From the IMG/VR virus record IMGVR_UViG_3300023284_002989: a DNA stretch of 25,011 nucleotides. One strand, 5' to 3'. Below, piece after piece: positions 3,660 to 23,982 of the stretch (position 1 is the first letter of the stretch; every line of letters starts with the position of its first letter). Origin of the DNA: a virus. The position numbers and the translations under genes were made by a program. Below the pieces are notes generated by a model. The model was not told the origin of the DNA, made no database searches, and saw only the letters and a list, made by a program, of their open reading frames with translations.

Positions 3660-3896
3660 ATGTCTGAGACTGGTAAATTGGATTCTAATGTGGTGCGTGA
3701 CTTTCCTGTGGGAGCACAACTGCGGTACAAGAAGTCACGTTTGCGAGGGAGTAACGTCCACTGTAACGTTATGCGGCATTTCCTCGATCCAAACAAAAAG
3801 CACTACGTCGAATTGCACTGGAGCACCGGGGAAAAGAATAATTGGTCGGCAGGAGGGGTTGTCAGCGATCTGCAGACAGAGACGATGGAGTTTTGA
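3660..3896 (+). CDS. PVG-family small protein #1 (ETMEF tag)
   Basis: ATG at 3660 (MSETGKL...). VVRDFPVGAQL...HCNVMRHF...ELHWSTGEKNNWSAGGVVSDLQTETMEF. Closest paralog is 6031-6264. Confidence 0.7.
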   Translation: MSETGKLDSNVVRDFPVGAQLRYKKSRLRGSNVHCNVMRHFLDPNKKHYVELHWSTGEKNNWSAGGVVSDLQTETMEF

Positions 3897-4213
3897 TGTC
3901 AGACGCAACTGTCACGAGGTTGTCCGTTACAAAGGACCGCGCCAAAGCCCTTGGGCAGTGGGTAGAGGAATTGTCACACGACCCGGTGCGGACAGAACTG
4001 TTCAAGCTGGGGTTCACCCCCTTCCAGTTCCACTACACGGCGTTCGACGGGAGCATGTTGTCTGTGTCGCCCGATTATGCCGAAGAGCCGGTCTGGCATG
4101 TGTGCTGGGACGAAAATGAGGGGGATGGGGGGATATTTGTCCGAGTACACACCGACGAGTTGGTGGATTTCCTTGCGGTGCGCATCAAGGAAATGGAGTC
4201 GTCGAGGAAGTGA
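3896..4213 (+). CDS. hypothetical protein
   Basis: ATG at 3896 overlaps the upstream TGA (TGATG). 105 aa. No family recognised. Confidence 0.6.
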   Translation: MSDATVTRLSVTKDRAKALGQWVEELSHDPVRTELFKLGFTPFQFHYTAFDGSMLSVSPDYAEEPVWHVCWDENEGDGGIFVRVHTDELVDFLAVRIKEMESSRK

Positions 4214-4392
4214 AATGGAAGGTCCGCGTATGGTGCAACGACTGTGGTTTCGGGCAGGACCCCATGGGCTGCTTCGAGGGGGGTAGTGAGGTGCTGGACG
4301 AGGTGTTCGAGACTGTGGAGGTGGCAGAGGACGCCGGGAGCGACTACTGCAAGTGTTCCACGTGGGATTTCGAGCTTTTGGAGGAACAGTGA
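4210..4392 (+). CDS. small acidic Cys-containing protein
   Basis: GTG overlaps the upstream TGA (GTGA). Contains WCNDCG ... YCKCS. 60 aa. Confidence 0.55.
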   Translation: MKWKVRVWCNDCGFGQDPMGCFEGGSEVLDEVFETVEVAEDAGSDYCKCSTWDFELLEEQ

Positions 4393-4667
4393 AGCACCTG
4401 TCAGGTTGCAAATGGTACGCTGCGGCAGCATGCCCTGTAGCGGTGTCGTGTGATGCGCACGGGCACGATGTCTGCCCGGAGTGCGATCCCTGCATCTGCA
4501 GTGGGAAAGCATTCCTCGTGCGTGTCTGCAACACGTGCAGCAAGGAAGTCTTGCCCGTTGAAGAATGTGACGGTCGGGTGTTCTACGAACACATTTCGCC
4601 TTCACCAAAGTGTTGGATCGAATTGGTCAATGACGACACCACGTTTGTTGAGACGATGGACCTGTGA
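4389..4667 (+). CDS. Cys-rich small protein with ETMDL C-terminal tag
   Basis: GTG at 4389 overlaps the upstream TGA. At least 12 Cys (CPECDPCICS, CNTCS). Ends ...TTFVETMDL-TGA. Confidence 0.6.
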   Translation: MKHLSGCKWYAAAACPVAVSCDAHGHDVCPECDPCICSGKAFLVRVCNTCSKEVLPVEECDGRVFYEHISPSPKCWIELVNDDTTFVETMDL

Positions 4668-4951
4668 GGGTCAAACCCATACCGATGAGGACGCAGGAGC
4701 AAGCTCAACAGGGCTGCTATCGCAAGAGCGGGTACGCCTCTCTGGAATCGGCAAGGGTTGCTGCATCGCACAAGAGTGGAACCAGTTACGCCTACCGGTG
4801 TGGGCTGTGTGGGGACTGGCATCTGACTTCACAGCGTCCCAGCAAGGGCAAGATCGTCAGATCCAGGAGGCGCAGGAAAAGTAAGCAAGACCACAGTCTG
4901 CGGCAGTCGCTTGGTGACTCTTTGCGTAGTTTGACTAGTGACACCAAGTGA
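4664..4951 (+). CDS. small basic protein with CxxC-WHLT motif
   Basis: GTG overlaps the upstream TGA. Contains AYRCGLCGDWHLTSQ followed by a K/R-rich tail. 95 aa. Confidence 0.6.
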   Translation: MRVKPIPMRTQEQAQQGCYRKSGYASLESARVAASHKSGTSYAYRCGLCGDWHLTSQRPSKGKIVRSRRRRKSKQDHSLRQSLGDSLRSLTSDTK

Positions 4952-4970
4952 CTGGCAGTAGAGTCCCATA

Positions 4971-5225
4971 ATGAAACGTCGATCCATTCTCGGTGCTGCC
5001 CTTGCGGCGATTGCGCTTCCATTCCAGAAGCTGTTCAGGCGTAAGCCACGTGACATTGTGTTTCCTGTCATTCGCAACGCAGATTACGGAATGTCGATGG
5101 ACGAGATCATGCGGGATGTGCATTTCGATATGCAGCACATCTACGATTGGAAAGCGCGCCAAACAACCGACAAGGACAAGCTGTTAGACGACAAAGATGC
5201 GGTGTGCACGGTCTTCAAGGTCTGA
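4971..5225 (+). CDS. small exported protein, twin-arginine-like signal
   Basis: N-terminus MKRRSILGAALAAIALP (RR plus a hydrophobic h-region). 84 aa. Confidence 0.65.
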   Translation: MKRRSILGAALAAIALPFQKLFRRKPRDIVFPVIRNADYGMSMDEIMRDVHFDMQHIYDWKARQTTDKDKLLDDKDAVCTVFKV

Positions 5226-5354
5226 TACAGTGGGGCCAATCCGGTGAGGTTCTGCCTCGATTGCCTTGCCGGGGTTGTCTACAGGGTGAGGTGACTCTGA
5301 GACGACACAGGTTGTGCTTCCAGACGTGGAAGGCAATCCTGTGATTACAATCCA

Positions 5355-5397
5355 CAGGGTCCCTCTACCAATTCCAAGAGGGACCCTGTTTTCTCTT
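5355..5397 (+). terminator. rho-independent terminator
   Basis: Perfect 12-bp stem CAGGGTCCCTCT (5355-5366) / AGAGGGACCCTG (5377-5388) with a 10-nt loop, followed by TTTTCTCTT. Confidence 0.8.
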
Positions 5398-5425
5398 GCG
5401 GACACATTTGCGGAGGTGGTAGGTT
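5396..5425 (+). promoter_or_regulatory. conserved promoter cassette, copy P2
   Basis: -35 TTGCGG, 18-nt spacer ending GTGG, -10 TAGGTT (5420-5425). ATG at 5432, only 6 nt past the -10 (leaderless geometry). Confidence 0.65.
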
Positions 5426-5431
5426 GTGGCG

Positions 5432-22713: not shown

Positions 22714-22722
22714 CAAATTTTA

Positions 22723-22795
22723 GCTCCCATAGCTCAACGGTAGAGCACGCAGACCAATGACCTGCGGGTTTCGGGTTCAAATCCCGATGGGTGCG
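22723..22795 (+). tRNA. tRNA-like gene 3, canonical D and T arms, 9-nt anticodon loop, anticodon undetermined
   Basis: Acceptor GCTCCCA/TGGGTGC with one T-T mismatch. D arm GCTC-AACGGTA-GAGC. Anticodon stem CGCAG/CTGCG with loop ACCAATGAC. Variable loop GGTT. T arm TCGGG-TTCAAAT-CCCGA. Confidence 0.55.
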
Positions 22796-22815
22796 CCCTG
22801 TTGACTACTTTTCTC

Positions 22816-22844
22816 TTGGCGTGTACGTGCCGATCTGATAGGTT
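22816..22844 (+). promoter_or_regulatory. conserved promoter cassette, copy P5
   Basis: TTTTCTC then -35 TTGGCG, 17-nt spacer, -10 TAGGTT (22839-22844). ATG at 22854. Confidence 0.55.
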
Positions 22845-22853
22845 CGGCTTGAC

Positions 22854-22931
22854 ATGTCAACGCAGAATTTTGAGATAGGTGATGTCGTGCGTCTGAAGTC
22901 TGTGGTCTCGCAGGAATCACAGGATCTGTGA
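22854..22931 (+). CDS. 25-aa peptide
   Basis: First ATG after P5. MSTQNFEIGDVVRLKSVVSQESQDL. Its TGA overlaps the next ATG (TGATG). Not in the track. Confidence 0.35.
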   Translation: MSTQNFEIGDVVRLKSVVSQESQDL

Positions 22932-23149
22932 TGAAGTATTTCCTCGAATGGCTGCGTCAGACGGATGAGGACAAGCTGTTTGTTGTCGGCTTCGGATTTC
23001 TAATTACCTTGGCGCTTGTTCTGCTTGCAACAGGAATTACGTACCACACCTACCGTAACGCCAATTTCCTCACAGATTGTGTCGAAGCAGGCCACAAGCC
23101 TCTGGAATGCAAGCAGGCTCTCAGCAACAAAGACAAGGACGATGAATGA
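22931..23149 (+). CDS. small membrane protein (1 predicted TM)
   Basis: ATG at 22931. Hydrophobic stretch LFVVGFGFLITLALVLLATGITY. 72 aa. Confidence 0.6.
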   Translation: MKYFLEWLRQTDEDKLFVVGFGFLITLALVLLATGITYHTYRNANFLTDCVEAGHKPLECKQALSNKDKDDE

Positions 23150-23319
23150 CGGAAGAGTGGGCGAAGGCGATTCGCAAGATATCGAAAATGTCTGACCAAC
23201 AGAAGGAAGACCTGGCCAGGAAGTTTGAGATCGCCACCACAACAGTTTTCAAGTGGGTACGTGGTACGGCCACTCCACATCGCAATATACAGAAACAGAT
23301 ACTGAGGGAACTGGAATGA
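23146..23319 (+). CDS. 57-aa helix-turn-helix (Xre/Cro-like) DNA-binding protein
   Basis: Not in the track. ATGA overlaps at both ends. DLARKFEIATTTVFKWVRGTATP is a typical HTH pattern. Confidence 0.55.
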   Translation: MTEEWAKAIRKISKMSDQQKEDLARKFEIATTTVFKWVRGTATPHRNIQKQILRELE

Positions 23320-23519
23320 CTCGTCCTGCAGATCTTGTCAAACACGTCACCGAGTTCTTCGAGGGAGACGCGAAGACGGTTGACCTGTGGTTCACACTGC
23401 CCAACCCAATGTTGGGGCACATCTCTGCTGACAACATGCTGGAACTGGGGCGTGAGGACAAGTTGCGTCAGTTCATCGAGAATGCCGTCGAGGCAAGTCA
23501 ACCACCAGCGGGTCTGTGA
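23316..23519 (+). CDS. DUF2384-like (Xre/MbcA/ParS antitoxin toxin-binding domain) protein
   Basis: ATG at 23316 in track ORF 23253-23519. AKTVDLWFTLPNPMLGHISADNMLELGREDKLRQFIE matches the remembered DUF2384 pattern (A..W...pN..LgG.sP.d.l.t..G...v...L). Confidence 0.5.
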   Translation: MTRPADLVKHVTEFFEGDAKTVDLWFTLPNPMLGHISADNMLELGREDKLRQFIENAVEASQPPAGL

Positions 23520-23746
23520 TGCCTGAGAACGTGGAGTACGCACTTCGACAATTGCTTCTCTCCTGCGATGGGTTGACGGTAACTCTCGACGGAATTGTTG
23601 AGATCCGTGCACTCGAAGCTGGTGAACGGTATGCAGTTTTCAACGGCAAGAAGGAACATCTATACAACAATGTCAACGAAGCAATTGTTCAGTGGGTCAT
23701 TTTGTGTCACCGCCATGACCCCGTCTTCTCAACACGTGTGAAATGA
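23519..23746 (+). CDS. hypothetical protein
   Basis: ATG at 23519 (TGATG). 75 aa. Not RES-toxin-like by eye. Confidence 0.55.
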   Translation: MPENVEYALRQLLLSCDGLTVTLDGIVEIRALEAGERYAVFNGKKEHLYNNVNEAIVQWVILCHRHDPVFSTRVK

Positions 23747-23982
23747 CAAATACGGAGTACAACCAAGAGTTGTTGGATCTGTTTCCAGTGGGGTGTGTTA
23801 CGCGTTGTAACGATTCGTGCACTGCTCCGATAAAGATTCATGTGCGCAAGCACTATCTTCAAAATGGAAAGCACAAAATCAAGACGACAGTCATGTTGAC
23901 CAACGGAGTAGAGCGAGAAGATATCTGGAAGGCTGACTACTTTTACAGACACGTAGCACAACCTGTGATGTGTGACTTGTGA
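23743..23982 (+). CDS. PVG-family small protein #6 (divergent; ends PVMCDL)
   Basis: ATGA overlap. LLDLFPVGCVTRC...HVRKHYLQNGKHKIKTTVMLTNG...W...VAQPVMCDL. Confidence 0.55.
   Translation: MTNTEYNQELLDLFPVGCVTRCNDSCTAPIKIHVRKHYLQNGKHKIKTTVMLTNGVEREDIWKADYFYRHVAQPVMCDL

Follow-up and report, generated by a model that had tools for sequence, protein, structure and literature searches.

A dispersed family of six small phage proteins with a predicted Tudor/SH3-like barrel and a shared C-terminal tag

The window analysed here, the whole stretch of 25,011 nucleotides from the virus record IMGVR_UViG_3300023284_002989, encodes six diverged copies (m1 to m6) of a small stand-alone protein of about 75 residues, referred to as PVG, which, judged from sequence comparisons, is a genuine protein family nearly unique to one phage lineage. 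The copies are predicted to fold as a Tudor/SH3-like small beta-barrel, and their most likely role, proposed tentatively, is that of diversified small binding modules. Phage-like in character, the contig probably represents part of a very large phage genome, and the region resembles the early/accessory region of a phage. Matches to PHROGs were found in the window with E-values down to 8.5e-24, a Lar-like restriction-alleviation protein is encoded in the region, and a major-vault-protein (MVP) gene is located at 11240–13939. MVP is also present in phages of 462–735 kb; the nearest homologs of the MVP encoded here are only 47% identical.

A first-pass annotation of this DNA had described the six copies as a dispersed family, and had named a likeness confined to the C-terminal tag as the finding that would refute it. 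The contig sequence was checked, and the open reading frames are present at the coordinates and in the frames given in Table 1. Stored gene calls match m3, m4, m5 and m6 exactly, and those for m1 and m2 begin slightly upstream, at GTG 3642 and GTG 5995; the start of m2 is ambiguous, as GTG 5995, TTG 6004 or GTG 6031 could be used. With the tags stripped from profile and targets alike, every one of the six members was recovered by leave-one-out profiles (E 4e-22 to 9e-7), and no non-member of the 515 six-frame segments scored better than E 0.05, so that the family is real and survives the removal of the tag. Likewise, a profile of m1–m4 lacking the last six residues retrieved m6 at E 7e-6 and m5 at E 8.5e-5 from the 515 segments, with the next match at E 1.2, and no seventh member was detected in the window by the tag-stripped profile search. 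Two copies depart from the motif originally proposed: m5 has HR instead of H[FY], and m6 lacks the xW element and has a degenerate tag. Residues P, V, G, H39, H47, G56, W61 and A63 are invariant in the six copies; over all nine known PVG sequences the invariant set is P, G, H, H, W and A.

Table 1. Coordinates of the PVG copies, of the tags on other genes and of the cassette upstream of m1
Feature	Coordinates	Strand	Length	Leave-one-out E	Remarks
m1	3660..3896	+	78 aa	4e-22	ends ETMEF; TGATG overlap with next gene
m2	6031..6264	+	77 aa	5e-22	ends ETLEF; TGATG overlap
m3	10486..10707	+	73 aa	2e-15	ends ETMEL
m4	15421..15651	+	76 aa	1e-19	ends DTLEF; TGATG overlap
m5	17669..18028	+	119 aa	3e-7	ends EVMEL; PVG domain about 17801-18028
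m6	23743..23982	+	79 aa	9e-7	most divergent copy; degenerate tail VMCDL
Tag VETMEL	369..386	+			on non-PVG gene 3-386
Tag IEVMEL	1885..1902	+			on non-PVG gene 1678-1902
Tag VETMDL	4650..4667	+			on non-PVG gene 4389-4667
Tag TEAMEF	6390..6407	+			on non-PVG gene 6264-6407
Tag HEIMEL	8601..8618	+			on non-PVG gene 8313-8618
Tag TETMEF	9514..9531	+			on non-PVG gene 9283-9531
Tag YEVMEF	9903..9920	+			on non-PVG gene 9531-9920
Tag RETMDL	18229..18246	+			on non-PVG gene 18025-18246
m1 cassette	3574..3659	+			hairpin 3574-3591, T-run, leader GTTTTCTCTT..TGCGG..GGTGGTA(A/G)G..ATG

Repeated duplication followed by divergence, as had been suggested, is supported by the gene-sized similarity of m1 and m2, by the saturation of synonymous sites and by the concentration of variation in one loop. 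The DNA similarity between m1 and m2 begins near the start codon and stops at the stop/start junction, with unrelated flanks, which identifies the gene as the unit of duplication. The identity of this pair is lower than the three-quarters estimated by eye in the first-pass annotation: it amounts to 64% for DNA and 53% for protein, and reaches 73% in the first 52 nt only. Between paralogs dS ranges from 1.2 to 2.7; the duplications are therefore old. Pairwise omega values among paralogs are 0.21–0.49, estimates weakened by the saturation (dS ≥ 1.2), and for the same reason the per-site values that had been suggested as a check are not meaningful. The ortholog of m1 (P0007, on ENA contig L001) is 77% identical in amino acids and gives an omega of 0.41. 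These figures indicate that the copies are under purifying selection overall, with no arms-race signature; all omega values are below 1, with no sign of diversifying selection. The longest copy, m5, has an N-terminal extension of about 45 residues including KIEASKFTNPFKDKYH, a copy of a segment in the C-terminal region of gene 17313–17669, which lies upstream.

The family had not been recognised in the initial reading, and the searches agree with this: the six members had no match in Pfam (hmmscan) or, as a profile, among PDB sequences, in both cases at E ≤ 10, nothing under E 0.1 in PHROGs, and nothing at E ≤ 1 in NCBIfam or PADLOC. Against 50,697 phage genomes, neither tblastn with m2 (E ≤ 1) nor megablast with the full window gave a match. 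The profile search proposed earlier did bring in three relatives, for a total of nine known sequences, and no homolog of known function. In a word-indexed search covering 5.8 billion proteins, profiles of 6 and of 9 sequences retrieved only the six copies of the window together with P0007 and P0009, the latter being the ortholog of m5; exhaustive searching of 1.84 billion representative proteins with HMMER contributed P0009 and P0010 alone as further relatives. Another HMMER match, P0008, was discarded as spurious, being due to a repeat protein. The ENA contigs of the three relatives are only 542–793 bp long and hence provide no gene context. A pair of paralogs in the window, 7561/10235, is unrelated to PVG, as hhalign gave a probability of 0.2%.

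Structure prediction, another of the checks proposed initially, points to a Tudor/SH3-like beta-barrel. The AlphaFold models of m2 (pLDDT 83.9, pTM 0.71) and m6 (pLDDT 85.3, pTM 0.72) show an identical topology of a helix, four strands and a helix; the underlying alignments are only 6–9 sequences deep, and the two models are not independent, since the alignment is common to both. According to the prediction, a short N-terminal helix would be followed by the invariant [FYW]-P-V-G turn that leads into strand 1; the beta1-beta2 loop, the putative equivalent of the SH3 RT loop, would be hypervariable and rich in indels; three more strands would carry two invariant histidines and two near-invariant tryptophans; and a short C-terminal helix would precede a flexible acidic-hydrophobic tail, E-T-M-E-[FL]. 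The alignment shows high BLOSUM scores for the core columns and scores of about 0 or lower, with indels, for columns 20–33, 42–46 and 57–60, the core being conserved and variation centring on the beta1-beta2 loop. The aromatic positions that are conserved, F/Y/W16, F/Y40, W53 and W61, may simply belong to the core. In both models the tail has low confidence, which is consistent with its being flexible.

Among the closest known systems are the N-terminal domain of CarD/CdnL, the RID of Mfd and the C-terminal domain of UvrD/PcrA (CarD_TRCF_RID), bacterial Tudor-like domains that interact with RNA polymerase, a group characterised by binding to its beta subunit. The Tudor/SH3-like five-stranded barrel of this group is also what is predicted for PVG; in sequence, no match to CarD_TRCF_RID was obtained for PVG in the Pfam and PDB searches described above. 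The antitoxin VapX (VapXD, 6zn8_F) differs from PVG, which has no sequence similarity to it and no VapD/Cas2-like gene or conserved partner adjoining, and the VapD/Cas2 family was absent from a Pfam scan of the 67 other proteins of the window. DUF1653 (PF07866; 3be3) is a small barrel widespread in bacteria and phages, in contrast with the nine PVG sequences known, and PVG gave no match to its Pfam model. The eukaryotic Tudor/Spindlin readers of the royal family belong to another kingdom and context and have no sequence similarity to PVG; these methyl-lysine/arginine readers are marked by an aromatic cage of 3–4 aromatic residues where their barrel is open. Large phages carry hundreds of small genes without known relatives, and PVG is a clean, statistically secure example of them: an uncharacterised, lineage-specific family that is worth recording and not surprising in kind.

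The tag, E-x-[ML]-[ED]-[LF], ends 13 of the 81 gene products of the window and occurs internally only twice in 7,979 residues. It is not specific to PVG, given that eight unrelated neighbouring genes end in it (Table 1); the tagged genes all lie within 18 kb around the MVP gene, and the tag is retained in relatives with 47–55% GC. Its first and second codon positions are invariant and the third is variable, with swaps of M/L, E/D and L/F, a pattern that argues for a constraint on the peptide. In 9 of the 13 cases the GGAG within the tag, together with the TGATG overlap, can also provide the gene that follows with its ribosome-binding site. A pure Shine-Dalgarno/start overlap was rejected as the sole cause of the tag on account of this codon pattern, and moreover of the four tags that lack GGAG and of the CTGTGA junctions, which put GGAG 2 nt from the GTG start. 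The 20-mer of the junction had no match in IMG/VR; single matches numbered 43 in JGI metagenomes and 21 in GTDB genomes, consistent with the few dozen that, by a rough estimate, chance would yield in collections of that size, and none of these loci has a PVG homolog or a second tag.

We infer a binding function, a kind of target and a role for the tail as follows. The PVG proteins would be small protein-binding modules in which the conserved barrel serves as a scaffold and the variable loops give each paralog a separate target, a host or phage macromolecule; a conserved scaffold with a hypervariable loop is what one would expect of a binding module that has diversified. One candidate target is RNA polymerase, by analogy with the Tudor-like domains of the bacterial proteins CarD/CdnL, Mfd and UvrD/PcrA, and the shared tail would tie all tagged proteins to one common partner. 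This role is favoured by the tag-free family statistics, the same topology in two models, the contrast between core and loop, the omega obtained with the L001 ortholog, the flexible and C-terminally enriched tag and the phage context; the lack of a homolog of known function, the absence of a sign of diversifying selection and the shallow, non-independent models weigh against it. A plausible but unlikely variant, in line with the anti-defence reading of the first-pass annotation, is that the copies inhibit immune proteins of the host, or act as neutralisers in the manner of an antitoxin such as VapX, and have diversified to match different host variants. The presence of six diverged copies, their hypervariable loop and their place in an accessory region where a Lar-like protein is encoded too agree with this; however, there was no sequence match, PADLOC included, omega is 0.2–0.5 and not above 1, VapX is just one among dozens of equally scoring small barrels, and no toxin, defence or other partner gene is conserved beside the copies, the neighbours of all six being different. 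Anti-defence activity is in any case a special case of the binding-module explanation and involves no alternative fold or mechanism. It is quite unlikely that PVG proteins are nucleic-acid-binding barrels (Sm/Hfq-, KOW- or cold-shock-like) acting on phage or host RNA or DNA. The fold class takes in Sm, KOW and Tudor-like binders, and the best match of a BFVD fold search, a weak one (E 5e-3, TM 0.52), is annotated as a putative RNA binding protein; nevertheless, no family model of this sort was matched, conservation falls on hydrophobic residues and on His, Trp, Pro and Gly, not on Lys or Arg, and a pI of 5.4–8.9 with a net charge of -5 to +2 speaks against both a uniformly basic binder of nucleic acids and an acidic mimic of DNA.

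Short terminal motifs shared by unrelated proteins are known from encapsulin cargo-loading peptides and from the acidic-aromatic C-terminal tips of SSB and T7 gp2.5. As in encapsulin-like docking systems, the tag described here is a short terminal motif on unrelated proteins of one genome, and the PVG tail, like these tips, is acidic with a hydrophobic or aromatic last residue, whereas its sequence differs and the motif may in part also serve as a ribosome-binding site for the following gene. There is a slim chance that E-x-M-E-[LF]-COOH is a new phage docking or targeting signal that routes at least 14 small early proteins to one hub, delivering PVG and the eight other small proteins in the manner of encapsulin cargo, with the barrel as payload. 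PVG barrels may be the largest client family of such a hub, for which the vault-like MVP shell is one candidate, and a host machine such as a protease, a secretion system or RNA polymerase another. The position of the tag at the extreme C-terminus of 13–14 otherwise unrelated proteins, its conservation at the peptide level and in relatives of differing GC content, its flexibility in the models and its clustering around the MVP gene agree with this proposal. On the other hand, the tag can double as a ribosome-binding site, and a 74.6-kb phage-like contig with MVP (L004) has neither PVG nor the tag, nor any recurring C-terminal motif in its 43 genes, which counts against MVP and the tag being generally linked. 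Finally, that the reading frames are chance products, or are alike solely through shared junction and tag sequence, is barely credible: the tag is indeed common to unrelated genes and in part coincides with Shine-Dalgarno/start overlaps, but the tag-free profile searches rule this out, and the orthologs in three independent ENA assemblies, the omega values below 1 and the confident fold predictions speak against it as well. If targets such as RNA polymerase or defence proteins were found, PVG would represent a new class of phage effectors, and the shared tail could point to a way of docking common to all these proteins in a phage encoding a vault protein.

The genes tile the plus strand, with TGATG or GTGA overlaps linking them to their successors. 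Upstream of m1, which is the first gene after it, lies a cassette repeated three times (further copies at 5388–5437 and 19183–19232), composed of a terminator-like hairpin, a T-run and a conserved leader. The first-pass annotation had taken this cassette and a -10-like box at 15408 to be promoter-like; a scan for the sigma-70 consensus flagged nothing at either place, and detected 7 sites in total versus 8.9 expected. The cassette holds TGG-TA(A/G)G(T/G)T, which is like an extended -10 box, 8–11 nt before the ATG, and may or may not act as a promoter. The sequence GGTAGGGT, 9 nt upstream of the m4 ATG, resembles the 3' part of the m1 cassette.

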